Assembly (NCBI GenBank): GCA_964106645.2
Contig: OZ067041.1
Length of the DNA stretch: 64,000 bases
From: Podarcis pityusensis
Lineage: Eukaryota
Reading direction: 5' to 3' (one strand)
Shown: one piece after another, positions 14,110-60,778 of the stretch
Layout: each line of letters starts with the position of its first letter
Numbering within the stretch: the stretch's first letter is position 1
Made by a program: the position numbers and the translations under genes
Notes under the pieces: model-generated
The model's database searches: none
Seen by the model: only the letters and a program-made list of their open reading frames with translations
Told to the model about the DNA's origin: nothing

Positions 14110-14309
14110 NNNNNNNNNNNNNNNNNNNNNNNNNNNNNNNNNNNNNNNNNNNNNNNNNNNNNNNNNNNNNNNNNNNNNNNNNNNNNNNNNNNNNNNNNNN
14201 NNNNNNNNNNNNNNNNNNNNNNNNNNNNNNNNNNNNNNNNNNNNNNNNNNNNNNNNNNNNNNNNNNNNNNNNNNNNNNNNNNNNNNNNNNNNNNNNNNNN
14301 NNNNNNNNN
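14110..14309. other. Assembly gap (200 N) covering the end of the DCHS1 CDS
   Basis: Run of N. Confidence 1.
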
Positions 14310-36376: not shown

Positions 36377-36884
36377 CGTGCCCGATCGCGGCGGCGGCTC
36401 CGTGTGTGGCGCGTCCCGTCGGCTCGGCTCCTCCCCGCCGCTCCCTCGGGCGGCTCCCGCCGGAGACCGCCCCCTCCCGGCCTCCGCTCCCCTCCCACGG
36501 CCCCGCCGCTCCCGCCCCGCCCGGCAGCAGAGGCTCCGCAGCAGCGGCCACGGGCGCCACCAGGCGGCGCTGCAAAGCCCGCCCAGGCCGGGCGCGGGAG
36601 TCCCGGCGCCCCGCCTCCGTCCCAGACAGGCCCCGGGCGGACTCTGCTCCCCCGGCCCGCCCAGGCGCGCCCCAGCCACGGGGGTCTCTCTCCGCCGTCG
36701 CCCTCCGAGGGCGCCCCTTCCCCCGGCGCCCCTTGCTGGGGCGGCCTCCGGGCGGCAGGGGGCGCCCGCGGGCCGCTCTGGCGGCGAGGTGGTGCTCTCG
36801 AGAGCGCAGCCCGGAGACCCGGAACTTCCGCCAGCGTGAGCGCCCGGGCTGCTGCCGCCGCTGCCGCCTCTTTCCCCCGGGACG
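36377..36884. promoter_or_regulatory. Bidirectional CpG-island promoter of ILK and RRP8, including a likely non-coding ILK exon 1
   Basis: Head-to-head genes; minus-strand donor ACG|GTAAAG at 36377/36376; paired ETS motif CCGGAACTTCCG near 36819-36830. Confidence 0.75.
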
Positions 36885-39800
36885 ATGTTCGAGGAGGCTC
36901 CGTGGGGCGAGGCGGCGGAGCTGGCGCTGCCGGGCCCGCGGGCCGAGGCGAGTCCCTCTGGGGGCCGCCCCCCGCCCAGCCCCGCCGCGCGCCGGCGCCT
37001 CCTGGCCACGCTGCGCCGCCTGCAGAGCTCGGCGCCGCGCCCGCCTTCCCCGGCCTCCTCCGGCCGAGGCAGCAGCGCGTCGGACTCGGAGGCCGAGCAG
37101 CCGCCCGAGAGGAAGCGCCCGAGGAAGGGGTGGCAGGCGGGGTCGCCCCCCGGAGCTCCGCCATCGCAGCAGCAGCAGCAGCGCCTCCCGGCCCGGAAGG
37201 AGGAGCCGGCGCCCCGAGCAGGTGATGCCGCTGGGCTGTGGCCCAGGGTCTCCCCGGGACGAAGGCCGAGAGAACGAAGGCCCGGGGTGCAAAGGCGGGT
37301 CAGGGGGGTTGGCCTGGGTTGGAGTTCGGGTGGCGGCAAGCGGCAAGCTGCCTTCTCGCGGGACTCTCGGCGGCTATGCTCCTTTGCTGAGGTTCTGCTT
37401 GTGGGTTTCCCATCAGGGTTGTCCACTGTAAGGCTGTGGTGTTGGACTAGGTTCTTAGAATCTTATGAAACCGTCCCTGGGGGCCTCTGCAGGTGGGGTG
37501 GGGCTGGTCCCTCTGCCTGGAACCCCGGTGGGCTGTTGCCACCAGCAGTCAGTGCACAGAGCCCTGGACTGGAGCGATCATCTGGGCGGGGGGGGGGGGC
37601 GATGGAGCCCAGGGCTAAGCACCTCTGTCCTTGCCCTGTCCAGACAAAGCAGCTGGAGGCGGAGACCCTGAGCCCAGCAGCAAGCAGAGGAGCGCTGGGG
37701 CAAAGGCAGCTGGGGCAAAGGACCCAGAGGAGGAGCCAAGGCAGCGGCTGACCAGGAGACAGTGGAAGAACCGCCAGAAGAACAAGCGTCGCCAGAACAG
37801 GTTCAAGGCAGGGCTGGGCCGCGAGGAGCCCCCTGCAGTCCCTGCAGCAGCAGAGGAGCCCCCCAGCAGCCAGGAAGATCCAGCAGGCCAGGAACTTCTC
37901 AGCGAAAGGGCAGCATCCCTGCGGCTGCGCATGGAGGAGCGGCTGGAGTCAGCGCGCTTCCGCTTCATCAACCAGCAGCTCTACACATCCTCCAGCCAGC
38001 AGGCGGTCCAGCTCTTCCAGGATGACCCTGAGGCCTTGGCAGTGTATCACCGGGGCTTTGCCCGGCAGGTGGCCCAGTGGCCTGAAAACCCTGTGCAGCG
38101 CTTTGTGCGCTACCTGCGTCAGAGGTAAGGATGGGGGGGGATTGGCCAGCTCCCCCCCTTCAACATGTGCTGGTTAAGCAAACATCTGCACGTGTTGCAA
38201 GGTCATAGTTAACGTATAGAAGTGTTTGACAGGATGGGTGCACGGTCTAACTTTGCCCCTCCCCTCACAGACCAGCATCACTCGTGGTGGCAGATTTCGG
38301 TTGCGGGGACTGCATGCTGGCACGCAGCGTGCGGAACAAAGTGCACTGTTTTGACCTGGTGGCTCTGGACCCCCGAGTCATGGTCTGTGACATGGCCCAG
38401 GTACGTTGGGGGGAGGGCCTCCTCACAGCACCTGCCTTCTCCAGGTTTGGGAATAGCTGTGTGATGAGCCCATGCAGGTGGGCTTTGCTTCACTGGAGGC
38501 TTTTAAGCAGAGCTTGGACAGCCACGTGTCAGGGCTGCATTGAGTGTGATTCCTACAGTGCAGGGGGTTAGACTAGAGGGCCCTTGGGTGTCCCTCCCAG
38601 CTCCATGATTCTATGACTACCTCACACACATGGTTTTCCGATTGCGCCTCCCTCTTTTTGCTCCTTCTGTGCAGGTCCCCCTGGATGATGAATCTGTTGA
38701 CGTGGCTGTGTTCTGCCTGGCACTGATGGGTACTAACCTGCAGGAAATCTTAGAAGAGGCCAACCGTGTGCTACGAGTTGGGTAATTGTGGGGTCCAGGG
38801 GTCACTGGCATGGGAGGGGCTGTGGCAGTGAGGGGGACAGGTGAAATGGCTGATCAGGGCACTGCCAGCTCAGTCAAAACCTATGGCTGTCATATGGGGA
38901 TGATGATATTTAATACCTATACTGCTTAATAATAATACTCTGCCCATCTGACTGGGTTTTCCAGTCAGAAATATTAAAATATTAGTAATATATTAATAGA
39001 GATATAGTTAGAATATTTTAAAGCATTGTACAGAAAACTGAAATAACAACAACTTAAACAAAAGATGTGACTAAAATAAAGGATTATGTTAATATACATT
39101 TATTAATATTCAGACAATAAATTAATGATGGTTGCAAAGAGCCTTGAGGCAGTGAATCAGCTAAATCTGCTTAGTAGCAAAATTTCAGCATAACTAACTT
39201 GAATATTGAAAAAACCACTATTCGTGTATTTTCTATTTCAGTATCAAAACAGTCTCGAAAATATGCATGAAGCCCCCCTGATCTAAAGTTTACTTGCATT
39301 CTTTAAAATCAGTCCTCGGCACCAATTGCCTTTGAAAACAAGTAGCGAGGAGGAAGAGGAGGAGGAGGAGGAGGAGGAGACTCTCTGGCCAGGAAGAGCT
39401 TTGGTGGAAGTGCAGACTTCCCAGGCCGGCCTTGGGTTCACCCACTCACACCCACCCATGGCAGCTCCAGGCAGAGCTCAGAGAAGGACCCCTGGGTCTG
39501 AATTCCTGGAGAGAGAAGGAAGGCTGTCAGTGGCTACATGTCGGCCACAGGATCAGAGGCAGCAGCTCTGGATCACTGTGAATAATAATAGTAGTAATAA
39601 TAATTTTATTGCTTGTATCCCGCACATCTGGCTGGGTTTCCCCAGCCACTCTGGGTGGGTTACAGGACATGAAATACTGTAAAACAAACATTTTAAATTT
39701 CTGAAGGTGGGAAGGGGCTACTTCTGAGGCATCCTCTGAGATTTCCTGACGTGAAATGCAGTAATAAAATAAGCAAGCATTCCTTGGACTGCTTAGGGGG

Positions 39801-40282
39801 AAAGGATTACATGATTGGTAACCATTCAGAGCTCCAGCAAAAACAATGACCTATAGCATTTGGGGCCCCTCTCTTTGGGGGGCCAGGCCAAGCCGTCTCC
39901 CAGCCCTCCCGGGTCCTGCAGGTGCTGATCTCCGCCCTCCGTCTCTCCTCGCAGGGGGACCCTCCTGGTGGCCGAGGTGGCCAGCCGCTTCCCGGACGTG
40001 CGGGCCTTCGTGGCGGCGCTGGCCCGGCTCGGCTTCCGCCTCCTCCGCAAGGTAGGTCTCCTCCCCCTCCCTCCTTCCTCCCTCCCGGGGGCCGCGCGAG
40101 GCCCCCTTCCGGCCCGCGCGCGCCTCCGCATGGCCTTCCCTCTCCTCTCCTTGCAGGACGTGACGGGCAGCCACTTCTTCACCTTCGAGCTGCGCAAGGC
40201 GGAAGCGGCGAAGCGGAAGGGGCGGGGCGAAGGGGCTCTTCCGGGCCTGGCGCTCCGCCCCTGCCTCTACAAGCGGCGGTGA
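36885..40282 (+). CDS. RRP8: Ribosomal RNA-processing protein 8 (nucleomethylin, SAM-dependent rRNA methyltransferase)
   Basis: Exons 36885-37221, 37644-38124, 38271-38400, 38675-38781, 39955-40051, 40157-40282. MFEEAPW start, [20 protein letters not shown] (SAM motif I), [20 protein letters not shown]-terminal LRPCLYKRR*; AATAAA at 40327-40332. Confidence 0.95.
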
Positions 40283-40474: not shown

Positions 40475-43400
40475 ATGTCGGGATCGACGGGCGGGCCGGG
40501 CCCCGGCGGCGGCGGCGGCGGGGGCAAGCTGGACATCAACCGGGCCTGCGTGGCGGAGCTGGAGCGGGCGCTGGTCGGCATCGGGCGCCGCCGGGCGAGG
40601 GGCATCGTGCGCAAGCGGGAGGTGAGGGACCCAGGCGTCCGAGGGGCCCGCTCCCTTCCCCGGGGGGGGGACTCCGCTCCGGGCGGGAGGGGCTTCTCCG
40701 GGGGCTCCTCTCCTCTCGGTGCGTGACGGACGGGGCGCCCTCTCCCCGCCAGGAGCTGAAGGGCTTCGCCTCCCTGGACGACCTGCTGCACGTCAAGGGG
40801 ATCACGGCGCGGATCCTGGAGCTGAACAGCCAGCGGATGACCTGCTCGCCGCCGCCGGAGCCCGCCCGAGCCGCCGCCTGCCGGGCGTCGTCCTCCTCGG
40901 CTCCGGCGCCCGAGGTGGGCTTGGCGGCGACCTTGGCCCGCGTCTCCGGGGCGGGCGGGGGGCGGGCGGAAGAAAGCCGGGCGGGGGGCGGGCGGCCGGG
41001 CCGAGGCTCGCTGAACCCCGCTGCCCGCTTCCCCGCGCAGGCTCCGGACGAAGAGGCGGGTCGGTCCCCGCCGCGTCCCGGGCCGCGGGAGAGCTGGGCA
41101 CCGGCCTGCTTGGCGGCCGAGGAGGAGCCGGGCAGCTCCTGCCCGCCGGGGGCGGCCGACTCCGAGGATGAGACGAGCGGCGGCGGCAGCAGCGATGGCG
41201 AGGAGGGCGGCGGCGGCGGCGGCGACGTCTACTTCTACTACACGGTGGACGAGCGCTGGATCGACTACCTGGAGCGGACGGAGGGCGGCGGCCTGATCCG
41301 GCACACGCGGCCCAAGGTGAAGAAGGGGCTGCGGGGGGAGAGGACGGGAAGAGGGAGACCCCCGGCAGAGCAGGAGGCTGCCCGGGATGGGCCAGATCCA
41401 GCAGACGCTTCTCCTTCGGAAGCTGCCTGGGGAAAGGAGCCCAGAGAAAGGGACGGGGCTCTGGGGCGCAGCAGCTGAGAGGGGCTGGGCAAGTTTTCGG
41501 TTTGGCCTTCTCTTTGGCCCAGGGAGGCTGGCAGGAGAAGAGGGTGATGCTGGCCAGGACCTTCAGGTTCTTCCTGGAAATGTCTGTGGCATCAAAAGCT
41601 TGTGCTGAGCGTTTCTCAGGGGTGCAGCCAAGGGACTGGGCTGACCAAAACAAGTGGGTGGGACCACTTGAATTTAATGCCTTGTTCATGATATCTTTTC
41701 TTTTCCTCGCTGGAGGAATTTTTGAAGTTGGAGCACATTTTTCCTGTGCAGATTTGAAATCTGCAATTCATGGAGGAGGGGCTGTTGGGGGCAACTAGCC
41801 ACCATGGCTAAGCATGCTCTGCCCTTCAATGTAGGAGGCAGCGATGCCTCTGAAAACCAGGTGCTGGAAGCCACAGGTGACCAGAGGTGGGGGGAGTGTT
41901 GTTCTTGGACACAGATTGTGCCTGTGGGTTTCCATAATGGGCATCTGGTTGGTCACTGTGGGGACAGAGGGCTGGACTGGATGGGCCTTCTGATCAGCAA
42001 GCCCAAGAGGGTCAGTGTGGTTTAGACCACACTCCCATTCACATCCCTTTTTGAATCTGCACAATGGGGTGAGCTCCTGTTGCTTTGTCCCAGATTCTGC
42101 CAACCTAGCAGTTTGAGAGCGTGCCAGTGCAAGTACATAAATTGGTACTTCTGTGACAGGAAGGTAAATGGCATTTCTGTGCGCTCTGATTTCCGTCACT
42201 GTGTTCAGTTGCGCCAGAAGCGGTTTAGTCCTGCTGGCCACATGACCTGGAAAAACTGTCTGCGGACAAACACCGGCTCCCTCAGGGTGAAGCGAGATGA
42301 GCACAGCACCCCATCGTCACCTTTGACTGCACTTAACCTGGGGTCCTTTACCTTTACTTGATGGGCCGTTGGCCTCATCCCGCAGGCTCTTGTGATTCTC
42401 GGGTGTGTTCTGGCCATCAAGGCTCCAAGGATGAAAGTCAAAAGCCGTCAGGTGGGGAGAGGGCTGCATCTTTATTCCCCACCTCCTGCCCTTACGAGGT
42501 TGTTGTCCCAAAGCACAGTTTGTAGATCTGTGTTCTGAGAGAAAGTGTTGAACCTTCCAGTCTTTTGGGGAGGCAGGAGGCATGGGGGCCCTGGCATGGC
42601 TGCTGTGCGGTGGAGGCAGCAAGAAGGGCGCCCCACTTGACCTGATGTGGCGCTGCGTGCATTGCATAGCCTTTCTTCTTGCGGAGCCGAAGGGTTTCCT
42701 GGATCCGTGTCACTCCATTCCGCCCCATCTCTTTGCATTGCAGATGAAGCGCAAGTCAGAGAGCGGCCCGGATGGCAGAGCCCAGTCACCTGGCAAGAAG
42801 CTGTGCAAAGGCTCCGAGAGGGGCAGGTGAGGAGGTTGCGGGTGGCGCTTGGGAGCTCCTGCAAGGTGCCGGGGGAGACGGGGTCTGTCTCCAGCCGGAC
42901 TCTTGACTTGGGCCCCTGGCCGTGGCATTCTCCTGACATACTTGCTTCCTCTCCAGAGTGTTGGGCCCCTGTGTCGCTAGCCCCACGGCCACCTTTGGGG
43001 ATTTGCGGAACGCCAAGGCAGGCCAGGCGCGCTGCCGGCATGTCCCCCCAATGACACCACCCCCTGAGCTGCAGGACTGGCTGCGCACTTTCCAGGTGAG
43101 CGGCAGGCAGAGGCGCCTGTGTCTGTGTGAGATGCATGAGGCCCTCGGCTGGAGCCAGAGCAGGGCTGCGCTTTCTGGCTGGCTTGCAGCTGACCTTCCG
43201 ACATTCGGCAAAGGCCTTTTTCCACGAGCCGGGCATTTGGCAGATGTTGTGCTGTGGTGTGTTTCTCATTTCCTATTTTGTTTTAGGGGTTTGATCTTAA
43301 AAGTGAGCTGATGCATTGTGGTGTTTCAACATTTAGAAAGCGACAAAGCTTTTGCTTTGATTGCTTTTATGGGCTGCTTTGTGGCCTTGGTTCTGGCGCA

Positions 43401-46400
43401 GAGACGGGCTGCAATCCTGGGTGTTGCGCTTGATCTCCCCTTACTCCTTTCTCCCGCCAGCGCTGGAGCGGCCCAGAGAAGCTGCTGGCTCTGGATGAGC
43501 TCATTGACCGCTGTGAGCCTCCCCAGATCAAGCACATGATGCAAGTGATTGAGCCCCAATTCCAGCGCGATTTCATATCACTGCTGCCCAAAGAGGTGAG
43601 TGTCTCGTGGGTGGGGGACCTCGGAGGAAGAATGCAGGGCAGCCGAGAGAGGACAGTGGGGAGTTGTTGGCCGAAGGTGTTGGTGGAAGAATGAGCCTGC
43701 AGGGTGTTGTTAGAAAGCCTTGAGCAACAGGTCAGGAGATCAGAATCTGAGCCACAGTCAAGAGGGGACACGATAGGTAGTTGTAAAAGAAGTGAAGAAG
43801 TGTGCATGCACACAAAAGCTTATACCAGAACAAACTTAGTTGGTCTATAAGGCAGTATTGGACAATTATTATTTTTATTATTTCGACTGCGTCAGACCAA
43901 CACGGCTACCTATCTGCGTCTGAAACAAATAAGAGTCAGAACTATTCATACCAGCTACACATTTTTAAAGTGTGCATGAAAACTCACAGAAACACTAGGA
44001 TGAAGTAACAGAGAGAAACTGGAAGAAGAGAACTTTATCTGAAGTGCAAATGTGGCACCAGCAGGAAAATTGAGTAGAGCCGGTTGCTTTAGCAGGAGAT
44101 GAGACACATCAGAGAAGGAGCTATTTGATTTGATTACAAGGCCTTGGAAAACTTTTAACGGCAAGAATCAAAGTTATTGGAGAACCTGAAGGCCTGGTGA
44201 GAAGCTAAGAGCCAGAGTTCAGTTCCTGCCAAAGAGGAGAAAAAGGAATGAGACAGGCAAGGGAAGGAGCAGCAGCAGAGGGCGTTGCAAGAGGGAGGAA
44301 GAACGAATCAGCCCCAGAGAGGGAGGGTAGGAGAGCTTGGCCAAGAGCAAGAGGCGGGTGTCCCAGGCCTTGTCTCTCCAAGGCAGCTGCTCATTGTGCA
44401 GCAGAAAGTGATGGAGAAGAGGAAAAAGTGGGTGTGTGGTAATTGGGCAGGGAAATCAGGCCTCTGGGATCCAAAAGATTTCTGGGTGCTAAGGCAAAAG
44501 TTGGGCTTTATGCTCAAATTAGGCTTTAAAATGTAAACAGATGCAAAGTACAAAATCTTGGTTTTTTGAAAGTGATTGTTAAATGGTTTTAAATGGTGTT
44601 GTCATAAGTGGCAGATGGGCAGAACACTTTCAGTCAAAAGCTCCTTTTTCTTAATTTTTAAATATACAAACATTAAGGGGAGGCTGTCAAAGATGTCAAG
44701 GGAGGGAAGAGAAGCGGTCAATGGATTTAGCTCGCTTGAACGTCCGCGTACGTGAGCTAATGTAGCGCACGCTCTCTCCTTGCCTCTCCAGGCCAAAGCA
44801 GAACTTCCCTTGTGAGGTGCAGGCTACCATTTTTAGAACAAAAGTGGTGTCATAGGGAGTCCTCTGTAACACATCCAAAGAAAGCCAAATCAGACGGGAG
44901 TGGCAAGGAGGACAATAAGAAATGGCAGGAGGATGCTTGGAGGGCAAGAGATTGGCCCAGATGGACAGGACAGGGAGCTCAGCCGCAGACTCTGCTGGAT
45001 TGGAAAGGCAGGAGAGGCCTTGTGGGCTGTGAAGCAGTTTGGGATTGCGTGGCCACAGTGGCCCTGACAGCTGCTGTGTGGGAGGAGGGCGTGGACCACG
45101 GGCTTTCCAAAAGGCCTTTGCCCAAGGCCTGGCTCTGATCCAGCTCTCTTCTTGGAGGAGCATTGGAGGGCTGGTGAGGGTAAAAGGATGGCAGCAGCCA
45201 CTCACCCACTTTCCCAGCTGTGCGGGACCTGTTGGTGTCAGGTCATCTAGATGGCAAAGTCTCCACATTGCTTTGGTGGACGTGAGAAGCTGCCCAGCCC
45301 AGCCCCGTGCTCTCCATGCCTGGCTTGCCATTTGCACCCAGGGAGGCCTTTCACGGGAGGAAATCGTGTCCCTTTTGCAGTTGGCGCTCTATGTGCTCTC
45401 GTTCCTGGAGCCGCGGGACCTGCTCCGGGCGGCGCAGACCTGTCGCTACTGGCGGATTTTGGCCGAGGACAACCTGTTGTGGCGGGAGAAGTGCCGCGAT
45501 GCAGGTGAGGCTCAGCTCCTGCCCGGTGTTGCTTCCCGGCTGCCCTTGGGCCTCCTCCCTGTCACAGCCGCTTCTCCCTCCTGCAGGTATTGAGGAGCCC
45601 CTGAGTCTGCGCAAGCGCCGGCTGCTCAGCCCAGGCTTCATGTACAGCCCCTGGAAACTGGCCTTCCTGCGGCAGCACCAAATCGACATGAACTGGCGCG
45701 GTGGGGATGCCCGCCCCCCCAAGGTAGGGGACCTCTCTTGACCCCCACCATTGGGGTGACGTGGTGCAGGGTTTACACACCTCGCCATGGCCTAAGACGC
45801 TACTCTGGGATCTCCGGGGTGGCTGCACGATGGGGACCAAAGAGCAGGCTCTGGAGGAAGAGCAACCCAATGCCTGGGTGCCCAGCTGGGTCCCAGTCCC
45901 TGTCCTATACCAGGCAGGGGCCAGGGCTCAGTGGTGGGCTGGGACAGACATGTGCCCCATACTCTTGAGAGCTGCTGCTGCTGCTGCTGCTGAGCTAGGT
46001 GGACCAGGCAAGCACCTTTGACTTCTGGCAAAGAAGATCCAGAAGGTAGAATTATTCTGGCTATTCACAAATGCGGGATGGGGGGGGGGGGGAGAGACTT
46101 GGTTGCTCCTTGAATTGGGGCTGTCACTGTGGCTGAACCTCCAGCCCTTGCAGAATTTGAAGTCCGCCTGCTTGATGCCAGCTCCTGACCGCTGGGCCTG
46201 GTCTCAAGCCTTGGAGAACTCAAGGCCACTGGGCTTGGGGAGGAAGCTGCCCCTTCCTTCAACCGCAGAAAGGGGGTGCAGGGTGATGCCGGCTGGCCTG
46301 CTAATTCTCTCCCTGGACCAGGTTCTGAAGGGCCACGATGACCATGTCATCACCTGCCTCCAGTTTTGCGGCAACCGCATTGTGAGCGGCTCAGATGACA

Positions 46401-47771
46401 ACACGCTCAAGGTGTGGTCGGCTGTCACCGGGGAGGTGAGTCTGGGAAATGGTGCTGTGGGCGGGGGTGGCTGTGGCTCCGCCTTCCTGGCTCTGAGCAT
46501 CTTCCTCCTCCTCCCGCAGTGCGTTCAGACCCTGGTGGGGCACACGGGGGGTGTCTGGTCTTCCCAGATGAGGGACAACATCGTCATCAGCGGCTCAACA
46601 GACCGCACCCTCAAGGTGTGGAACGCGGACACGGGCGAGTGCGTGCACACCCTCTACGGGCACACCTCCACCGTGCGCTGCATGCACCTCCACGGCAGCA
46701 GGTAGGTTGGGGGGGGGAGTCGCTCCAGGGACCCCTCCTGCCCCTCCTGCCTGGGACTCAAGCTGCTTGTCTCTCCTCCCTTGGCAGGGTGGTGAGTGGG
46801 TCCCGGGACGCCACCCTCCGCCTCTGGGACATCGAGACAGGACAGTGCCTGCACGTGCTGATGGGCCACGTGGCCGCCGTCCGCTGCGTCCAGTACGACG
46901 GGCACAAGGTGGTGAGTGGCGCCTACGACTACACGGTCAAGGTCTGGGACCCCGAGACAGAGAGCTGCATCCACACCTTGCAAGGCCACACCAATCGCGT
47001 CTACTCCCTGCAGGTGAGGGACCCCGACCCCTTCCCTCCCCACCCCCCGAGTCGCACAGCCCCTCACTCCTCCCACCCCTCTCTTGCGCAGTTTGATGGG
47101 ACCCACATTGTGAGCGGCTCCCTGGACACCTCGATCCGCGTGTGGGACGCCGAGAGCGGCAACTGCCTGCACACCTTGATGGGGCACCAGTCCCTGACCA
47201 GCGGGATGGAGCTGCGCGACAACATCCTGGTCTCTGGCAACGCCGACTCCACGGTCAAGATCTGGGACATCAAGACGGGCCAGTGCCTGCAGACCTTGCA
47301 AGGTGGGTGCTGCGGGCAGCTGGCTGGGCTGCAGGGACCTGAAACTCCCCATTGGCCCTCACCAAGTCCTGGGGGGAGGCTTTTCTCCCTCTGGGCAGAG
47401 GCCTGCCACCAGGGGCGTCCTCCAGGAAGAGGCGGCTGGGCACTTGTGGCTGGGCACAGCAGCTGATGGCTGCTTCTCACCTTCTTTGCCCCCCTTCTGC
47501 AGGTCCCAGCAAGCACCAGAGTGCCGTCACCTGCCTCCAGTTCAGCTCCAAGTTTGTGGTGACCAGCTCAGACGACGGCACCGTCAAGCTGTGGGACCTC
47601 AAGACGGGCGAGTTTGTGCGCAACCTGGTGGCGCTGGAGAGTGGCGGCAGCGGGGGGGTGGTCTGGCGCATCCGGGCCTCCAACACAAAGCTGGTGTGTG
47701 CCGTGGGGAGCCGCAACGGAACCGAGGAGACCAAGCTGCTTGTTTTGGATTTTGACGTGGACCTGAAATGA
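40475..47771 (+). CDS. FBXW7-like F-box/WD40 protein (FBXW7 paralogue) with an N-terminal ComEA-like helix-hairpin-helix domain, 734 aa
   Basis: Exons 40475-40621, 40753-40914, 41041-41316, 42744-42826, 42957-43095, 43461-43595, 45381-45504, 45587-45723, 46322-46435, 46520-46701, 46788-47013, 47092-47302, 47503-47771; 2205 nt, all GT-AG, in frame. MKRK entry exon, D-domain [16 protein letters not shown]-box [21 protein letters not shown]40 repeats and C-terminal [14 protein letters not shown]. The core (42744 onward) is near certain; joining of exons 1-3 is inferred from phase-0 junctions. Confidence 0.9.
43792..43916 (+). mobile_element. Penelope-like retroelement fragment
   Basis: GAAGAAGTGTGCATGCACACAAAAGCTTATACC...CTTAGTTGGTCT...CAGACCAACACGGCTACC resembles reptile Penelope-like terminal repeats (recognised from memory). 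Confidence 0.55.
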
Positions 47772-47938: not shown

Positions 47939-50900
47939 TCACTTTATTTCTGTACATGGCTTTCTCTGTGTCATGTGGGTTAAGCCCGGGAGGGGGGAGG
48001 GGGCTCTGGGGGAGGGGGCAGGGCGCTGCCTTTGCCCCGTGCTGCCGCCCCCCTCCCAGCGCAGGAGGCTGACGGCGTGGACACGCTGCTGGAGGCACAG
48101 CTCAGGGCCCATCTTGGAAGGCAGGCTCAGGTGCAGGATGACGCGCTGGCTGCCCAGCGCCACGGGGACCTCGGGGACCCCCAGGTAGACGGGGCACAGG
48201 TACTTGTTGGCCGGGAGCTTGGGGGGGGTGCCAGCGGAGGCCATGTCCCAGGTCAGGCGGGCGGCCTGGATCCAGATGGTGGGCAGCGGGCAGGGCTCGG
48301 CCGTGCGACTCTCCTGCAGCAGCCCACTGTGGGCCTTCCAGAAGGCGTGGCGCAGCTCCAGCCCGCTCAGATAGATGCCTTTCTCGGGGGCGCTGGTGGG
48401 GGGTGGCCCACTGGGAAGGACCTGGCAAAGGAAGGCAAGAGGGAGGGGGAAAGGGGGTGCTCAGGGACCGGGGCTGCGGGGCCTGCCCCTGTGCCCACCC
48501 CCATGCCCGCCCGCCCTCTCCTCCCTACCTGTTGGTGCAGCTGGTAGCGGTGCAGCTCCTGCCTCTCCACGCGAGCCCTCTCTTGCAGCACGGCCAGGAG
48601 GAGGCGGCGGGGCTGGTGGAAGGCGGCCAGCTGGTAGTGGGCCACCAGTGGCCCGCTGATGGAGCCCAGGTAGCTGCACAGGAGCTGGGTCCGCTGCTTG
48701 AGCGTCTGCAGCCAGGCCGGGGGAGCCTGGGGGCCGGTGAGGGCGTAGGGCAGCCAGGGGCTGGGCAGGCAGCCCTGCTTCAGGTGGTAGAGGATGGTGC
48801 TGCAGCGGCGGGAGGAGCAGGGCTCCCCCTGCAGGCGCTCCTGGGCGCAGCTCAGGTCGCGGCCCACCTGCTTCAGCAGGGCCAGGAGGATGCCCGCCTC
48901 CTCCAGCAGGAAGCGCTGCAGGGGGCGCGGCCGGGGGCGGGCCTGCCCTTGCGGGGGGCACCCCTTCCAGCCCACCTCCCAGCCGCACTCGCTCAGCTGC
49001 TCCTGCAGCTCCTGCACCAGCCGGGTCCCGTCCCGCAGCAGCTGCTCCAGGGCGCCTGTCTGCGGGCGGCAGGGGGCCCGGCGGGGCTGCCACAGGCCCT
49101 GGGAGGCCTGCAAGGCCACCAGCAAGGCCTGGCTCCGCTCCGCCAGCATCCGCTGCTGCAGCGCGCTGCACAGGCCCACCCCGGCAGGCTCCATGGGGCT
49201 GGGCAGTTGCTCGATGCCGGCCTGGGTGGCGGCCGCCGCCTCCTCATCCGTGTTCCCTACAGGGGGCAAGGAAAGGGAGGGGGATCAGCAGAGCACCCAG
49301 CGCCCCCACCGGCAGGCTCTTCCCTGCCCTCTTCAAAGGCATTAGCCAATTCACGAAGAGCCCCGCAATGGCCACCCACTGCCGCCACAGCTGGAGGAAG
49401 CAAGGCTTCCAAATACCCCTTGCCGGAAACCGCAGGCGGGGAGGGTGTTGCTCCTGTGCTTGAGTCCCGCTTGCGGGTTTCCCGCAGTGAGAACAGGATG
49501 CTGGGCCTGACCCAGACGGCTCTCCTGATCTTCTCTCACCTGGGTTGGGGCAGCCGACGACTGTGGCCACGAGCTGCTGGAGGCTGGAGGCTGGCTGCAG
49601 GGGGGAGGCGGGAGCCAAGCAGGCCTGGCACAGGCTCTGCACCACTTGGGCGTCACCGCTGTCCAGGATGTGGCCCCCATAGAGCATGGTCCCTGCAGAG
49701 GCAGAAGAGCCAGCCGTTTTTCGGAGGGGGCCTTCAAGGCCTTGGCTCTTGCAGGCTTCCCCTTGAACCCCTCACTCAGCCCTCTTTCCGTACCGGCCAG
49801 CTCCTGCAGGGCTTCCTGGGCTCCGTCTGTTAGGCAGCTCAGCCTCTCCTGGATCCTGAGCCCGGCCAACACTTCCCCGTGGCTCCTGCAAGGGCAGCAC
49901 AATCTCAGGCACAGGGCAGAGTCAGAGCAAAAACCGCACTCCTGGCTTGCCAGAGTGAGGACCGCCTTGGCCCGGGGGGGGGGGGGGGCGCCTGCTCCCA
50001 ACTTTCTTATGGGTCTCAGCAGCTGAGAGGAAGAGCCCTTGGACAGTGGAACAGAAGACCTTGGCAGGGGACGGGCCTTTCCTTCACTGAAGGATTTTAA
50101 GCAGGAGTCTTTAGCTGTGATTCCCGCATTGCAGGAGCTTGGACTAAAGGACCCTTGGGGTGCCCCTACAATTCTGGTTCTATGAAAGATTCTTGGGTAA
50201 ACTTCATTTTGGGATCAGTGGGAAACAGGTTAAGAAACAGGAAGTGAGTATAAATAGGTGGTTCTCCCAGTTGTGGGATGTAGAAAGTATTCCAGTGTGG
50301 CAGCCATGAAAAAGGAAATTTGCATGTGAGGGATCAGTAGGAAAGGAACTGAGAATAAAACTGCCAGTATCATCATGCCGTTTCAGGAATCTGGTGTGTG
50401 CCCACATTTGAAGAACGATATACAGTTCTGGGCACCTCCTCTCCCCTCAAAAAGGTTATTGCAGAGTTGGAAAAGATTCAGGAGGGGCCCCCTGAGGGGG
50501 TGGAGCGACTCCCTTACAAGGAAAGGGGGCAGCATTTGGGACTTTTTAGTTCAAAAAGTGAGGGGCAACATGGCACACGGTAAGTGGAAAGGGGAAAACC
50601 TTCTCCCTCTCTCATAACCCTCAAACGCATAGATGTCCAATGAAGCTGAATGCCAGAAGGGCAGATGGAAGAAAGTTCTTCCTGCGGCACAGAGCCAGAC
50701 GATGGCCCTCACTCTCGCAGGAGACAATGGCGGCGGCCATCTCTAAAGAGGAGCCACAATGGCAATCCTCTTCCTCCACCATTGGGGCAGCTGCTGGAAA
50801 CCGCGCGAGGGGAAAGGGCTCTGGGGCTCCTGTTCTGCCTCTGGTTGGCCACGTGGGAACCGGAGGCTGGGCTGAATGGCCTGATCCAGGTGGCGGCTCC

Positions 50901-53900
50901 TACACCCTCTGTGCTGTGCAGGGCTGATGCTGGGACCTGTGCTTTTTAACTTTTTTTGTGAGGGTTGTGTGAGCAGTAAGGTTCCCAGGTTTGCTGTTGA
51001 TACGAAATTGTTCAGGGTGATTAAACTCCAGCGGGATTATGAGGAACTCCAAAGGGATCTGGTCAAAGGGGCTATCAAAATGGCAAATGCAATTCAACGC
51101 AAGGAAAAGTGATGTAAGGTAAAGGGACCCCTTACCATTAGGTCCAGTTGCGGACAACTCTGGGGTTGTGGCGCTCATCTTGCTTTATTGCAAATGCAAT
51201 ACAGCTCAAGGAAAAGTGATGTACTTTGGGGCAAAAGAAACCCCTAAAAAGTGGGGTCTGGACTGCTGTGGCCAACGCAGGAATGAGCTCATGGGGTCCC
51301 TTCCTGCTCAGGACCTTCTTGGTTGGTCACTGTGAGACCAGAAGGCTGACTAGATGGAGCCCCTTTGGCCTGATCCGGCTGCTGCCGGACTCCTTAGGTT
51401 CATCCTACTTGGCAGCTTCCATGGGTGCATCCCGGGTACCCTCCAGTTCACCTGCTCTGGGGAGCCCTGGTGAATTCTGTGAGGCACAGGTAAAGGGGTC
51501 TTCCTCCTGCTGCTGCCAGAAAGGGCTGCAGGAAGAAAGCCCTCAGCTTTTCCCTGGCGGCCTGTCAGCTGGGAGATCCAAGCCCTCATCCGCTGCTGCT
51601 GCTTCCCACTCTGCTCCCCCCCCCCCTTTGCAGCCAGCAGCCCCCTCTGTGGCAACCCTGTGGGCAAGGACTGGTTTGTTAGCCCACACAGGCAGCTCCA
51701 AGAGCAGGGGAAGAATGGGGAGCCCACAGGTGGCGATTCAGGGTGCTTTCCAAGTAGCATAAAGCAGAGGAGGAGTTTCCAAACTCCCATGAGATGTACT
51801 GGCAGGCTCTTGGCCTCGCTGCTGGACAGGGCAAGCACCTCCTTCACTCACCACAGGTATGTCTCTGCCTGGGTCCACTGAGCATAGGTCTGCCTGTAGA
51901 GCAGGACCCCATAGAGGGCGAGGAGGGGCAGCCGCTGCTCTGTGTCTAGGTTCTGGGTTCGCCCCTGCAGCCAGTAGTGGCTGCGTGCCAGGATGCCCTT
52001 CAGCTCCAGTGGCATATCGCAGAAGAGGGAGGTGGCACTGCGCTTCAGGAGTTCTGTTGGCACAGAAGAGAATCAACCACCACAGCAGAGGCCGGGAGGG
52101 ACAGTAAGGACAGCCGAGGCCATGAGAAGTTGCTCAGCTTCTGTTTCTCTTGCAGAGGCAGGTGGAAGGCCCTGTGGCAGAGCCAGCGGCACTGGGAGAG
52201 CCCAGATGACAATGAGCAAGAGGGAGCGGGTCCCTGGGAGAGAGAGAGATGCAAAGGGGGGCAGTGCGCCTCTTCCCCAAGGTGTAGGCAGGGTGTGGAG
52301 AAGCCCCTCTGGCTGTGCCCCCCTGCGGCATCAGCCTCCCTCCCTCCTCCCTGGCCTGGTACCTGGCATGGAAAGAGGGGCGTCAGCTGCAGTGATGAGC
52401 CACAGGCGGAACTTGGTGTGGATCTCGAGGCCTCCCCCTGGCACCTTGCCTGTGCAAAAAGAGGGCAAGGTGAGAGGGGCTTTGGCTGGGGGGAGGGAGA
52501 CGCCTCCCGCTGCTTCCATCCGCCTCACCTGAGGATTTCACCAACTGGTCCAGCAGCTGCAGCAAGTCGGGGTCCCAGTGCTCCTGGAGGTGGCAGTTGG
52601 TCAAGACCAGCCACTTGCCTCTCTTGCTGCAGATGGGCAGCGTCCGCCAAACCCGCTTGCAGGCATCTGGGGTGCCAAAGGAGATGACTACCACACTTCC
52701 CTGCAGGGGTGGGGCCTGGTTACTTGCTCTGTCCTCCCAGAGGGACCCAGCTGACACCTGCACCCATTGTCCCTCCCCCTCCTTGTGCCCCTCGTCTCAC
52801 CCCTCGTCCCCGCTGGGTGGCCATCTGCTGGATCCAGAGGAGCGGGTGCATGAAGCAGCCTGGGGAGCTGGCCGAGGGCGTATGGAAGATGATGGGCTTG
52901 TTGGCCCGGCTGTAGGAGTACGGGTAGGTGAGGGCCATTTCCTCGGTGAGAGACCAGCCCAGCGAGCAGGTGGTGAGGGCCGAGACCACGCTGCTCATGG
53001 CAGAGGGACACAAGATGCGCCACAGGATGGCGCGCTGGAAAGGCCTGAGGTGGGCGTGGCTGGGACACAGGGCCAGCCCCACCATGGTGGAGCGCAGGCG
53101 GAAGTACTCCTGCCACTGGGCGGCCTGCCCAGCCAGGGAGGCCTGCAGCCCCTGGAACCCAGGAACGTTCTCCAGCAAGCCGCACTCCTCCCAGGCCTCC
53201 GCGCTCACCCAGCTGGGGCAAGGCACCCCGGCCGGCGGCTGCAGAAGCTCCTTGGCCGCCGGCTCCCGCAGGCCCTGGCAGAAGGCCAGCCACTCCAGCG
53301 GGGTGATCTCCCCCGAGACCTTCAGCGTGGCCATGGCCCCCAGGAAGAGGTAGAGGAGGCGGTCCATCTCCCGCAGGCAGGGCACCGCCTCGGTGAGGCA
53401 GTGGTGGAGCACGGCCTTGCTGAGCTCCAGGAGGCGCGACTCCAGCGACTCCTGCTTGGTGGTCTCCTGCCGCTTGGTGGAGAGCAGCGCCTGGCGCACG
53501 TGGGCCATGCAGACGCTGCTGGGGAAGCTGTAGGAGGGGTGGAGGCGGCAGACCTGCTGCAGGGCCAGGTGCAGGGCCACGCCCAGGCGGGGCACCATCC
53601 GGTACTTGTTGCACAGCGCCGCCTGGTCCTGGTGCTGGGAGACCATGTGCTGGTGGGTGGCGTGCAGGGCCTGGATCTGCGTCTGCAGCAGCCGCACCAT
53701 CGGCATGAAGTTCTCCTCCTCCAGCAGAGAGCGCTGCGGCTGGGCAATCAGGGCCACCAGCTCCTCCTGCGGGGAACGGCCACGGGGCTGGGCTGAGCGG
53801 CCTCTCCACGGCCGCCCCACGGCCCCACGCCAAGCCACAGGAGCCCCTGCCTCCAGCTCCTCCTGTGGGGAACGGCCACGGGGCTGGGCTGAGCGGCCTC

Positions 53901-56900
53901 TCTACAGCCGCCCCACTGCCCCACGCCAAGCCACAGGAGCCCCTGCCTCCAGCTCCTCCTGTGGGGAACAGCCACGGGGCCGGGCTGAGCGGCCTCTCCA
54001 TGGCTGCCCCACACCAAGCCACAGGAGCCCCTGCCTCCAGCTCCTCCTGTGGGGAACGGCCACGGGGCTGGGCTGAGCGGCCTCTCCACGGCCGCCCCAC
54101 GGCCCCACGCCAAGCCACAGGAGCCCCTGCCTCCAGCTCCTCCTGTGGGGAACGGCCACGGGGCTGGGCTGAGCGGCCTCTCCACGGCCGCCCCACGGCC
54201 CCACGCCAAGCCACAGGAGCCCCTGCCTCCAGCTCCTCCTGCGGGGAAGGGCCACGGGGCTGGGCTGAGCGGCCTCTCCACGGCCGCCCCACGCCAAGCC
54301 ACAGGAGCCCCTGCCTCACTCACCTCCGTGGCCTCCAGCTTCCCCTCCAGCTGCAGGATCCCAAACTGCAAGGCCTGCTGGTTCTTCAGGATCTCCTTCC
54401 GCTCGGCCCGCAGGACCTCCACCAGCAGCAGCTCCTCCAGCGCCTCCTGGCTGAGGCTGAGGTCAATCACGTTCAGGCTCTTGAGAAGCTCGTGGTCCAC
54501 CTCTGCAAAGAGGAGCCAGGCGGGAGGCAGGGCCCAGCCGTCCCAGTCACCCGCCTGCCTGCCACTCTCCGCCGATGGCTGGCTGCGGGGTGGAGGCACC
54601 TTGGGCTCTTGTCCCCCCACACTTTGGGGAACCCAAGTAGGTTGCTGCCGTGCTTTGACAGTGCAGCTTCCAATACTGGGCGAGAGATCTGCTGACTCTA
54701 GCTTTGCTTCCACCCGCAGCAACTGGAAGTTTCCAAAGCCTCTCACCCTCTCTGAGAGGGGAGCCGAAGATGGCTCTCAGGGTGAGCAGCGAGTGGCTGA
54801 GCCGCCTCCACCCACCTCAGCTCCCTGGGGAGGGGTTCCACAGAGGAGAGCCAGGAGGGCACTTGGGCACCTCCCTTACCTGCAGCCAAAGCCTCCAGAG
54901 GCAGCTCAGTGCACAGGTAGAGGCGGAAGCAGGGGGGCACCTGCGCCAGGTCCTCCGTTGACTTTGAGTGGAGGGCACCTCCGAACGATTCCTTCTGCAT
55001 CAGCTCCTCGAGGGCTGGGCACCAGGGGACGTTCTTTTCAAAGTCCGTCAGCAACACAGGGGTGCCTGTGAGGAGGTGGGAGCCAAGCAGCACATTTGCC
55101 TGAGCTCACGGACGGCGCGGGCAGAGTACAGGGCTGCTGAAAGAGAACTGCACCCTCCCAGGGGGCTGCCAGCAGGGGCAGGGGCACCACCTTCCTCCGC
55201 TCACCAAGGCTGGCTGCTTTGCAGAGGTTCTGCTCCAGGTCTGGGTCTGTGAGCGACAGGACCTCCAGGTTGTCTTCCGCGATCTCTATGGAGCTGCCCT
55301 GCTCCACCATGTCCGGCACCAGGTCAGAGATGGCATAGACCTGAGAATCCGCTGTAAAGAGGGGTTGGATGAGAAGCTACCTGCAGGCAAGGCCATGTGC
55401 CTGACACCCCCCCCCCCGCACACCCCACTCACCCTCTTCCATGGCTCTGGAGGTCAGCAGCCAGAGATAGGCCTGCTTGTCGGGGTCCACCAGCAGAGGC
55501 CAGCGGTGAGCCTGCGTGTGGGTGCTGGAGAGCAGGATCATGCCCACCAGGCGGCTGCTGGGGACCTTGGGCTTGTGGACTCGATCCCAGAGTCGCTGCT
55601 CTGGAGGAGAGCTGAGCAGGGACGCCAGATGCAGGGGCTGTTGCACAGCCAGCAGCAGATCGCTGTGGGAGGCTGGGCCAGGGCAGGGCAGCTCCTTCTG
55701 CAGGAGCCGCCTCACGTCGTCCGGCCCGAGGGGCCCCCAGGCCCCGGCACACACCGCCTGCCACTTCTCCAGCAGCTCCTCCCGCCGCTGCGGAGGGAAT
55801 GGGCCCAGGTAGGAGAGGCTGGCTGCGGAGAGGAGGGCATCGCCATAGACAGTAGTGCGCTGGGATTCCAGGTTCTAGGAAGGAAAGCAGAGGCGCCAGA
55901 GGGCTGAGTCTGGGAGAACGGCACCCTCGCCTCGCAGGGCACGGGGGGGGGGGACATGGGTGGACAGCCGCCCACCCCTCTTACCCTTGTGACAGTTGTC
56001 CAGCTGGCCATGTGCTCGGCCACGGAGCTCTCGACGGTGGTGGCCTCCTCTTTGGCCTGCAGGGAGTGGGTGAGCTGGTGCATCAGCTTCTCCTGGCGCT
56101 CCTGCTTCTGCTTCAGCTCCTTGATGCGCAGCTGGGTGGCATCTCTCAGGTATTCCGAGTGCAGGCGCCGGTCGCCCAGCTCCACCTTCTCTGCGTTGAT
56201 CTGGGCATCGCAGTACTTTAGCCGTGCGATGGTCGGCTGCCAGTCGAGCAGGGCCCAGTGGTACCAGTAGGTGGCCGAGATCCACTGGAAGAGGGCGGCA
56301 GCAGCCTGACTGGCACTGGATATGCTGCTCTCCGAGATGCGCTCGTGAGTCACAGCCCGGCCCAGGGCCTCAAAGAGCTCTGTGGTGAGGCTGTCCTTGG
56401 GGTAGAAGACAAGATCCTGGAGGGGGAAGCAGAGGGAGGGAATGGGACCCTGGCCTGGCTTTTCCACCAAGGAATGAGGTGCAAGAAACACTAGGCTGCT
56501 TCTGTTCAAATGCCCCAAGCTAAAACAACCGGTTGCTTACCATGAAGATGGACCAAAGGGGAGCACCTTCTCCAGCAGTCCCAGAAGCACCCAGGGGCCT
56601 GAGGGGTCTTCCAGCCTGTCCACCTCGCCAGCTCCTGCACATGGCCTCTCCTCTGCCTGGCTGCCCTGCCCCTTTGGTCACAGAGCATGGGAGCCACTCC
56701 AGAGGTGCCCAGGCCTGTGCAGAAATGAGTTTTTTTGCCATTTCCCCTCCCATTCACCCAGTCTGGAGAGGCCCGTTTGGAGCTCTTCACAGTCTCTACT
56801 TGTTTTAACAACTCTGAACAGTTTAGTATTGTCCGCAGACTTGGCCACCCCACTGCTGAGCTCTAACTCTGAGTCGTTTGTGTGCAAGTTAAAAAGCTCG

Positions 56901-59900
56901 TGTCCCGATCCTGATCCTTGGGGCACTCCACATTACACATGTATTTGTTCAGAGAACAGACCATCTATTCTTACTCTTTGCTTCCTGTGATTTAACCAAT
57001 TCCATAGTCACAAGAGGACTTCTCCTCTTACTCCTTGACTGCTAAGCTTACTCAGGAGTCTTTGATGAGGGTCTATATCAAAAGCTTTTTGAAGCTTTAA
57101 GTGCATAATCTTGACCGGATGAGCCCAATCTATATACTCTCAGCTAGACTCTCAGCTCCTGTGGGCTTCTCTGTTCTTGGGTGCAGCCCTCCTTGAAAAC
57201 CAAACCATAGATATTAAACTCATCAAAAGAAATAAAGCAAATACCATGCAAGGAAGGAATTACTAACCAGAGATGTGTAAGCATTTATTGTTAACAATCA
57301 GTATGTATCAGAAAGCAACAGAATGAAAAGAAATTAAAGACAAAAATGGTTCAACAGAAGTGACTGAACCTAACAGATATATCCAAAATACAGTAAGAAA
57401 TGTTATTGGTCTCTCTCATTTTCTTGCAGAGGAGGGGGAAGAACTCTGTTGCAACAGAAATATAAAGATCTGCCTTGTTTTCACTGGATCCTGCCTCCAT
57501 CCACTCTCCTCTGGTTGATCATGGCTTGAGGGGACTCAAGAGTCCCTTGGAGGAGCAAAAGGCAAGCCCCACTTTTTCTACAACCCTTGAGGGATAATTT
57601 TATATATACAGTATAATGTTTTATTCCCTTAAGGATATTTCCCATGCTTTGTGAGGACTGCAGTGATGTGTTTGCAGTATCTCTGTTGTGCTCAATTACT
57701 TTCCTGTTCTCTTACTGCAGCTGATGGTTTCAGGTTTTATCCACTGGTAGTTCCATGCTAATCAAATCCACATTTGCTGTTTCGCTAGCCATGCCTCCCC
57801 ACCCCCTCCCAGGAGGAAACAGGCTGCTTTTGCCCCTCCCTTTGTCAAGGACTTGGCGCAGCTGGAACAGCCTTTTGGTCTAGGCTAGGGTCTCTCTCTC
57901 TCCCCAGGCGGGCTGGTCCAGAGGGGAAGCGGAGCCTTGAGGCTCTGGCTGCTGGGCCAGCCCCAAGAGCACAGGAGCCACAGGAAGGGCTCTGGGCCTC
58001 ACCTCATAGAAGTTGTCCCTGTTGAGGAGCAGCTTTGCATTCTCCCAGCCCGGCTCCTGCTCAAACATCAGGCAGAGGATGTCCGTCACCATGACCACAG
58101 TCTCTGGCGGCTGGCGATAGCTGCGCAGCTCCTCAATGTCCTGCACCCGGAGCATGGCCAGGGCCTCCTTGTAGTCCTTGTTCACCTGAGAAGAGAAGGG
58201 TCACTGGGATGAGGCGGGCAAGGGCCTTCAGGCTGGGCTCTCCTCACCTGCCCCCTCTGCCACACCTCCCCTCCAGATGGCAGCTGCAGGAGGGCTGGTG
58301 ACTGAGCAAGACCTTCCTCCCCCCCACGTGCCCCCATACCTTCCTCATGGCCAGCTCCCTCCCCTTCTCCAGAGCATCCCGCTCCTTGGTAAGAGCATCA
58401 ATACGCGCTTCATACAGCTCACACTCCTTCTCCTGCTGCTTCAGCACCTCCTGCTCCCGCTCCACCTCCCGCTGACTGCAGATCACTTGCTGCAAGGCAA
58501 GGAGGATGGGTGGGGTGAAAGGAGACCACCCTAAACCGCAGCAGTATCTCCAGAACACCTGGCTGCCGCTGGCTCAGGCCACATCCGGTCCAGCGACCAG
58601 TTCTCACTGTGGCCGGCTCTGGTGCGCCTTGTGGGAAGCGCACTGGCACGATGGGTGCCCAAGAGCCTCTCTCACACATAGTGGGGGGCAGCCTTCTCTG
58701 ATGAGGTGCATCTGCCTCAGTTAGCACTAACAGAGAAGTGGGAGTTTAAAATATCCCTGTTCAGCCTAGCACTGAGGAAAATTCACTGTTTTAAAAATCT
58801 GTGTATTGCTTTTGATTGTTTTGCTATTGTTTGCTGTCCTGGGCTCCTTTGAAAGGAAGCGGGGAGGGATAAATACCTAAGAAATGATCCACCACAACTT
58901 GGATTCTGGGCCCTCTGACACCAGAGAGACCACGGCCATCCTCACGGGAAGACACACCTCTCGACTCTGACCTTTGTCAGCTAAAGGATTTTGCTTTGTG
59001 GGACCCACCTTGCTTCTATATATTTAGATGCTTATATACCACCAATTCATACCATAAAATATAAATTAACATCAAAGTCACTAGCCAATCAAATTCAAGC
59101 AGTTGCATAGGCTAGTCTGCATAAAAGAAGTCTTCAAGAGACACTTGGAAATCCAAAGCCAGAGTGGCTCCCGCTGGAAGAGGGCTCCTCAGCTTGGGAC
59201 TGGCAGCGCTGAATGCCCGACTCCTCAGGGAGGCCTGCAAGACAGCAGACAACCAGCAGCACTCCTCCAGGTGACCTGCGATGGAGCTGGGACCCAAGGG
59301 CTCCTCGAGTTGTCAAGGGCTTCATATATTAACACGGGACCCTTCAACCTGACCCACGTGTGTGGGCAGACAGTGCAGATGCCCCTGTCAGCAGCCAGGA
59401 TGCGACCTTCAGTGCTAGCTGGAGCTTCTGGACCAAGCTCACAGGCAACACCTCATTGCAGTCGTCCAGCGTGTGGGCTGCGGTGGTTGGATCATCCCGA
59501 TTTGGCTGCAGCTAGCTGGTCAGAGGCATTCTTAGCCAGTTGCTGGAGCCTCTACCGAAAAAGGTACCCAGGAGTATCCCAAGCTATGTGTCGGCTCTTT
59601 CAGAGAGAGGGCAGCCCTGCCCAGAACAGGCAACTGATCGGTCTCCTGGGCATGAAAACCACCTTCCCACACAGCCTCTGTCTCCCCAAGATTCAAAACA
59701 CCCAACATGCTGTGAGACAGGTTTGCCTCTATGGTTTGTCCAAATCCACTTTCTATAGTTTCTAACCCTCCACAATAGAATGGGATAAAAGACGATTTCC
59801 CCTTTCTTCCTGATTCCATTCTGAATATCCAAATCTTATTTACAAGCCTTGCCCTGTTCCCAGCTTCCTTTCAAATCCCTCTTTCCTGCAGTTCCTTCTG

Positions 59901-60346: not shown

Positions 60347-60778
60347 CTGCAAGTGGGGAAAGCACCCCATGAGGAGGCACACAGAGGGGGTCTGGGGCAC
60401 AGGACTCGGGGGTCCAATACCCACCCAGGTCTGTCAGTTAATCTGGTTGCCTGAAGTCCCTTCATAGGATGCCTAAGACAGATACGTGACGCCCTCTGAA
60501 CCAGGGATGCCTACAGAGAATGCAACTTGGGGGGCTACTTAAGTTCCTCTCAATGGGGTGAGGATGCAATCCTTAGTTCTTGGCTGATGGTCAGAAGGCA
60601 ACTCTTGCTTCCCTTCAAGGGCTCCTCTCCATCCCTCCTGCACCCATGAACAAAGGTCTTTCAGGTAAACTCACCTATCCTGTGAATCAAAGTCCTGCAA
60701 AATACTAACAGATGGACCTTCTCCATCACCCTACCTGGCCCTTTTTATTTATTAATGCATTTTTCAATTTACATCATG

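Follow-up and report, generated by a model that had tools for sequence, protein, structure and literature searches.

The 64,000-nucleotide window analyzed here, from the lizard Podarcis pityusensis (GenBank GCA_964106645.2, contig OZ067041.1) and equivalent to C4:186001-250000 of that genome, contains on its plus strand an intact, spliced paralogue of FBXW7, whose canonical locus lies on C9 of the same genome. The core reading frame is open across 539 amino acids, and the introns, with exons snapped to splice sites, are all GT-AG. An earlier, sequence-only reading had placed the gene at 42744..47771; this core is correct, as are the ten exon sizes that it gave (Table 1), but three coding exons at 40475-41316, spliced to the core in transcript contigs, had been missed. 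These exons, all in phase 0, lengthen the frame to a 734-residue protein, in which a helix-hairpin-helix (HhH) domain of the HHH_3 family and an acidic linker precede the core. The product shows the features of the FBXW7 family, namely a dimerisation segment before the F-box and, after it, a WD40 propeller nearest to that of FBXW7 (best PDB matches 5v4b, 2ovp, and 7t1y, E ~7e-109), and its core is identical at 538 of 539 residues to a Podarcis muralis database protein.

Splicing was assessed in transcript contigs from four runs of four studies, the runs being only presumed RNA and their source organisms related, not identical. All nine core introns were seen as joints in each of the four runs, as were the joints between exons 1 and 2 and between exon 3 and the core exon at 42744; the joint between exons 2 and 3 was clean in two runs, with a third showing divergent letters. 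A single contig spans 40418 through exons 1-3 into the core. The GT-AG joints nevertheless show that the transcripts are spliced. There are 12 introns in total, GT-AG throughout, of which the nine core ones lie at canonical FBXW7 positions; a retrocopy is thereby ruled out, as the sequence-only reading had also held, and a pseudogene is likewise rejected. Contig depth is very high in introns at ~39620-39660, 41974-42364, and 43790-43920, which marks interspersed repeats.

A search of the genome with a WD40 exon gave 31 matches, two of them strong, namely the window gene and C9:38.07 Mb (90%), with the next best at 46%. The latter is a separate canonical FBXW7, lying beside ARFIP-, FHDC-, TRIM2/3-, and DCHS-family genes, for which the sequence-only reading had proposed to look; a translocated orthologue, as the only FBXW7 in the genome, is thus rejected. 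The exons of the C9 gene measure 83, 142, 135, 124, 137, 114, 182, 226, 211, and 269 nt, nine of the ten equal to those of the window gene, and match the FBXW7 pattern given in that reading, with 142 for the second. The window gene is compact (7.3 kb) and GC-rich, whereas C9 FBXW7 covers ~92 kb from its upstream exon to the stop codon. The two cores are identical at 442 of 538 amino acids (~82%), and their four-fold sites, differing at 148 of 197, are saturated, a figure inflated by the contrast in GC content at third codon positions (0.85 versus 0.42). Divergence is concentrated outside the propeller, as had been claimed: 303 of 333 residues are identical in the WD40 region, 37 of 41 in the F-box exon, and 41 of 45 in the dimerisation exon, versus 36 of 73 and 25 of 46 in flanking stretches, the last being the linker encoded by core exon 5.

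All eight phosphodegron contacts listed in an excerpt of PMC8797792 (R441, S462, T463, R465, R479, R505, Y519, and R689) are identical in the window gene. Together with 13 further sites, they are also identical in 18 of 19 rows of the paralogue clade described below, the exception being the coelacanth model, which differs at four. Two residues beside Y519, at positions 521 and 522, are changed in every one of the 17 paralogue rows and might tune specificity. Thus, the window gene resembles FBXW7 (Fbw7/hCDC4; archipelago in Drosophila and SEL-10 in C. elegans; PDB 2OVP, 5V4B, and 7T1Y) in exon structure, dimerisation segment, F-box, propeller, and degron contacts, but differs from the canonical gene in its clade, its locus, and an intact N-terminal HHH_3 domain, of which the canonical gene has what is likely an eroded relic.

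The age of the duplication was addressed with two trees: a careful one, of 26 trimmed rows and 474 columns, from which near-duplicates, a garbled coelacanth, and long-branch goby models were left out, and a quick one of 45 rows with untrimmed outgroups. The careful tree contains a paralogue clade (100/98) and a canonical clade (99/98), with chondrichthyans basal in each; the quick tree concurs, with coelacanth and catshark falling among the paralogues and goby and croaker in the canonical clade. Since both clades hold chondrichthyans, the duplication is older than the split between sharks and bony vertebrates. A topology forcing the window gene together with C9 FBXW7 is rejected (approximately unbiased test, p-AU 5e-68), and with it a duplication within squamates, which the sequence-only reading had named as the outcome that would overturn it. 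The window gene is also not the orthologue of human FBXW7, as the C9 copy groups with gibbon FBXW7 and the window gene falls in the separate clade. That it is an FBXW7 paralogue of pre-shark origin we regard as close to certain. In the paralogues of shark and axolotl, a short first exon is similar to the beta-type exon found in frog FBXW7 and in hagfish, which indicates that a whole multi-promoter locus was duplicated; no beta-type first exon was found in the intron of the lizard window gene.

The chromosomal surroundings bear on the nature of this event. Five families—DCHS, FBXW7, ARFIP, FHDC, and TRIM2/3—are paired on C4 and C9, the comparison covering ~0.35 Mb on C4 and ~0.7 Mb on C9. On C4 are the DCHS1-like gene, the window gene, an Arfaptin gene (0.29 Mb), an FH2 gene (0.30-0.31 Mb), and a TRIM3-like gene (0.33-0.35 Mb); on C9 are a DCHS-like tail at 37.35 Mb—the only other genome match of the DCHS1-like cytoplasmic tail—a TRIM2/3-like exon at 37.66 Mb, an FH2 formin at 37.80-37.82 Mb, an Arfaptin gene at 37.85 Mb, and then FBXW7 at 37.98-38.07 Mb. 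The paralogue numbers (1/2 and 2/3), the name FHDC, and the human gene orders are presumed. The FH2 formin on C4 (C4:298830-311638), between the Arfaptin and TRIM3-like genes, has as its closest match the formin beside C9 FBXW7, and is probably an ohnologue of FHDC1. We know of no such formin gene in the human 11p15.4 interval, and it may be a second gene lost from this block. Inside the formin gene, at C4:304139-307096, lie frames that we take to be retroelement-like reverse transcriptase and integrase-like.

Whole-genome duplication is the origin that we favour for the pair. The alternative, a duplication that predates vertebrates or else a large segmental event on the gnathostome stem, is quite improbable: the base of the tree would allow it, in that the topology predicted by so old a duplication, with the paralogue clade joined to hagfish and amphioxus, is not rejected (p 0.25), and the span compared is short, but the five linked families have their partners on a different chromosome, amphioxus and tunicate each yielded a single FBXW7 type, a topology uniting all vertebrates is likewise not rejected (p 0.49), and the timing fits the duplications described in excerpts of PMC7269912 and PMC10972751. 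In those excerpts, the cyclostome split falls between the first round and the second, and the round that paired the present chromosome segments is not named. In the careful tree, hagfish, whose model is without one exon, joins the paralogue clade at 83/86; a topology of two clades without hagfish is not rejected (p 0.39), and hagfish with the canonical clade has p 0.07. The placement leans towards the first round. Hence, of the earlier proposal of a sister gene from the second round of genome duplication (2R), the pre-shark duplication with five paired families on a different chromosome holds; as to the round, hagfish leans to the first, and a hagfish position outside both copies, as expected for the second, is compatible with the data.

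The neighbours within the window itself (Table 1) correspond to TPP1, TAF10, ILK, RRP8, and DNHD1, which the sequence-only reading had listed for human 11p15.4. Pfam matches bear out TAF10, ILK (by an ankyrin exon), and RRP8 (by Methyltransf_8). The TPP1 and DNHD1 fragments tested matched no Pfam family; the names TPP1, DNHD1, and DCHS1 are presumed from the translated exons. A 200-base N gap at 14110-14309 truncates the DCHS1-like gene at its 3' end, and a frame shift just before the gap, near 13790, may be an assembly error.

Table 1. Coordinates of the FBXW7 paralogue and of neighbouring genes in the window.
Feature	Position	Strand	Size and content
DCHS1-like cadherin, 3' part	329..14111	+	paralogon marker
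RRP8-like	36840..40282 (start approximate)	+	upstream neighbour; Methyltransf_8; spliced separately in runs
Exon 1	40475..40621	+	147 nt; start codon, Gly-rich leader, first half of HHH_3 (from 40526)
Exon 2	40753..40914	+	162 nt; second half of HHH_3 (to ~40845); homologous to start of canonical FBXW7 alpha exon
Exon 3	41041..41316	+	276 nt; acidic linker, predicted disordered, with conserved aromatic motif at end (~41224-41316)
Core exons 1-2	42744-42826, 42957-43095	+	83, 139 nt; basic N-terminal stretch, start of dimerisation region
Core exon 3	43461-43595	+	135 nt; dimerisation segment
Core exon 4	45381-45504	+	124 nt; F-box, PF12937 E 6.1e-15
Core exon 5	45587-45723	+	137 nt; F-box to WD40 linker, diagnostic for paralogue
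Core exons 6-8	46322-46435, 46520-46701, 46788-47013	+	114, 182, 226 nt; WD40 propeller
Core exons 9-10	47092-47302, 47503-47771	+	211, 269 nt; WD40 propeller, stop codon
DNHD1-like	48026..60378 (limits approximate)	-	convergent downstream neighbour, runs past window; translated exons

The stop codon of the RRP8-like gene lies ~190 nt before the start codon of the FBXW7 paralogue, and with this spacing, and with 21 of 28 selected database proteins (from birds, one turtle, and Podarcis) joining RRP8-derived sequence to exon 2, the locus might be thought to work mainly as a read-through fusion. Such models in other species use the exon 2 acceptor (in the window, a joint of 40051 to 40753), and a product of this kind would be without the final exon of RRP8 and would retain only half of the HhH domain. 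No joint from RRP8 to exon 2 occurs in the four runs, where RRP8 and the paralogue form separate spliced contigs; the fusion is rejected as the main product, and we give it scarcely any credence. The in-frame models from birds, turtle, and Podarcis do account for the paralogue often being named RRP8, as it is in many birds and turtles. Database entries called FBXW7-like or RRP8 isoform are this same gene by automatic annotation, and carry no statement of orthology, history, or function. No publication describing the FBXW7 ohnologue, its loss, or an FBXW7 with an HhH domain was found in the literature searched, outside which most subscription papers fall, and an excerpt of PMC2446394 names Fbxw7 only at the Nkx3.2/Lbx2 loci. 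The paralogue, though it has database entries with automatic names, is therefore likely undescribed in the literature; supplementary genome-wide tables of ohnologues may list the pair.

The distribution of the paralogue extends well beyond lizards. A search with the diagnostic linker exon (core exon 5) matched in 65 of 67 candidates, the named ones being squamate, bird, turtle, platypus, and echidna; a search with the N-terminal half of the turtle protein added, among the best 120 of 821 matches, caecilian, newt, lungfish, coelacanth, sharks, rays, and chimaera, and cluster look-ups added alligator and axolotl. No paralogue-type protein of therians, frogs, or ray-finned fish appeared among the best 120 of 821, where canonical copies from those groups were present. 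Given that the echidna paralogue scores 410 bits, above the 330-bit limit of these 120, a therian copy with an intact HhH domain would likely have shown, although one without it could be hidden. In supplement 7 of PMC3984280, an annotation-based survey, human FBXW7 matches only eight Fbxw7 among 559 F-box proteins of eight Euarchontoglires. Thus, the paralogue was likely lost in therians, after the monotreme split, with probably separate losses in frogs and in ray-finned fish. Of the claim that the gene was retained in this reptile and lost on the human lineage, the second half is likely, no paralogue-type therian protein having appeared in the searches above; the first half is too narrow, as the gene is kept from sharks to monotremes. 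The monotreme paralogues (platypus and echidna) have long branches (0.21-0.29), in contrast to canonical amniote FBXW7 cores, which are nearly invariant; this would fit a relaxation of constraint that preceded the loss in other mammals.

Turning to the N-terminal domain, exon 1 of the window gene covers PF12836 positions 5-35 (E 9.6e-5) and exon 2 positions 38-61 (E 0.053), and these halves, scored separately, fall below the Pfam cut-off. The turtle orthologue, identical to the window domain at 56 of 62 positions, scores 51.1 bits against a curated cut-off of 27, and matches EEPD1 (E 2.8e-6) and ComEA (2e-4) among PDB sequences. HHH_3 is a family of sequence-independent DNA-binding domains. 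Modelled alone, the domain forms four helices with a predicted local distance difference test score (pLDDT) of 94.8, and in the full-length model it reaches 82-88, flanked by low-confidence linker; its best Foldseek fold matches are Tex, KIF22, PolC, PsbU, and TEFM, with template-modelling (TM) scores of 0.72-0.79 to the HhH regions of Tex, KIF22, and TEFM. It is like the HHH_3 domains of ComEA and EEPD1 in sequence, in its predicted four-helix fold, and in the Gly-hydrophobic-Gly of the first hairpin, but is a single domain fused to an F-box/WD40 receptor, with an altered second hairpin and DNA binding that is predicted only. Further along the protein, an aromatic-rich motif (41224-41316) is kept from sharks to monotremes within the otherwise divergent acidic linker; it has no Pfam match, and is possibly a docking site for some partner.

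The HhH domain was found in 122 of 167 paralogue-type proteins. Among 111 proteins with the canonical motif, it was found in no vertebrate canonical protein, the nine positives being tunicate and ostracod; in one scan of 41 proteins, it was present in those of amphioxus, Styela, Hyalella, Eriocheir, Cyprideis, and Clytia. These invertebrate proteins (Branchiostoma among them) have the same arrangement of HHH_3, F-box, and WD40 as the window gene but represent the unduplicated outgroup, and no description of them was found in the literature searched. The HHH_3 clusters found in an Atlas search were all below 0.9 and amount to no more than a lead. The presence of the domain in jellyfish, crustacean, tunicate, and amphioxus FBXW7 suggests an ancestral architecture, and the sequences make it likely that this was common to cnidarians and bilaterians and was repeatedly lost.

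Canonical FBXW7 itself seems to preserve a trace of the domain. Canonical models of ray, teleosts, lizards, birds, crocodilians, bats, and gibbon contain an in-frame extension before the alpha methionine, with its core motif in 49 of 111 canonical proteins. The last part of this extension aligns to the second half of the HhH domain (hhalign E 2.6e-4, with a probability of only 42%); in a shuffle control, each of the 13 related sequences outscored all 500 of its own shuffles, and in a decoy control, none of 4707 decoy windows reached 10 bits, versus 11 of 13 extensions. On C9, the alpha exon begins in phase 0, with exactly 23 codons ahead of the alpha methionine (C9:38004583-38004651 being those codons), and exon 2 of the window gene likewise begins in phase 0, with exactly 23 codons ahead of the residue aligned to that methionine. 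These 23 codons likely represent an eroded HhH relic, as judged from alignment and from a shared intron position and phase. Upstream of them, a 156-nt exon with its own ATG (C9:37980544-37980699) gives a cysteine-rich front end. A genome search with PF12836 missed the intron-split domain of the window gene, and is thus weak on an intact HhH exon at C9. As a wider proposal, and one that we hold tentatively, at rather short of an even chance, ancestral FBXW7 would have been a DNA-tethered receptor, of which one copy kept the HhH domain and was later lost in therians, and the tumour-suppressor copy would have turned it into a conserved 75-residue, cysteine-rich extension, in the so-called 5' untranslated region of FBXW7-alpha, that would be translated as an overlooked longer isoform. 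An excerpt of PMC3498124 treats the human upstream FBXW7 exons as non-coding, with no new open reading frame, which counts against translation of the extension in human cells.

Taken together, we consider it fairly probable that the window gene is an intact, spliced FBXW7 paralogue, likely derived from pre-shark whole-genome duplication, and that it encodes an SKP1-cullin-F-box (SCF) substrate receptor predicted to be tethered to DNA by its HhH domain. By homology, the F-box would bind SKP1, the propeller would bind the same doubly phosphorylated degrons as FBXW7 (of the MYC, cyclin E, and JUN type), and the dimerisation segment would allow homodimers and perhaps heterodimers, such that SKP1 binding and ubiquitylation of phosphodegron substrates are predicted for the window protein. 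The HhH domain would grip the DNA backbone without sequence preference, and the ligase would load in advance onto chromatin or damaged DNA, removing DNA-bound phosphorylated substrates. Human Fbw7, according to an excerpt of PMC8926403, reaches chromatin through its substrates and leaves when the pocket is mutated; that a receptor with its own HhH domain loads independently of substrate we rate marginally better than an even bet. After the duplication, the canonical copy would have let its HhH domain decay while the window copy kept it, and therians, frogs, and ray-finned fish would then likely have lost the HhH-bearing copy.

Several points weigh against this reading. DNA binding is a prediction from sequence and model; Foldseek with the HhH model gave no match at E 0.001 or better (E-values at least 0.12), and similar folds also occur in PsbU and NusA. 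The second hairpin is without its last glycine in vertebrates, and the net charge of the domain, +3 to +7 in vertebrates, is -2 in amphioxus. FBXW7 models of insects, snail, and mite are without the domain, which only 6 of the 41 scanned proteins had, and the absence from therians, frogs, and ray-finned fish rests on the best 120 of 821 matches, 67 candidates, and an annotation survey of eight Euarchontoglires. With the same origin, the HhH domain might instead be a protein-interaction or folding module, or idle, and the paralogue redundant, differing only in expression or dosage. In favour of this alternative are a degron face identical to that of FBXW7, a paralogue whose evolution outpaces that of the canonical copy, above all in monotremes (branch 0.21), HhH-like folds in proteins that do not bind DNA, and the several lineages that seem to have lost gene or domain. 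Against it are identity at 41 of 62 positions between lizard and sawshark beside a linker that is not alignable, first-hairpin glycines and a basic helix that are invariant or nearly so, and EEPD1 and ComEA as the closest solved relatives. On balance, we consider this alternative unlikely, and prefer the DNA-tethered receptor.

If that reading is true, a second receptor sharing the degron pocket exists in chick, lizard, axolotl, and shark, and knock-out and expression studies in these animals would be affected. It would also give an origin for the leader of FBXW7-alpha and offer a direct test of whether an SCF receptor loads on DNA alone. It is common for ohnologues to have been lost in mammals; what makes this case stand out is the HhH domain together with its relic.

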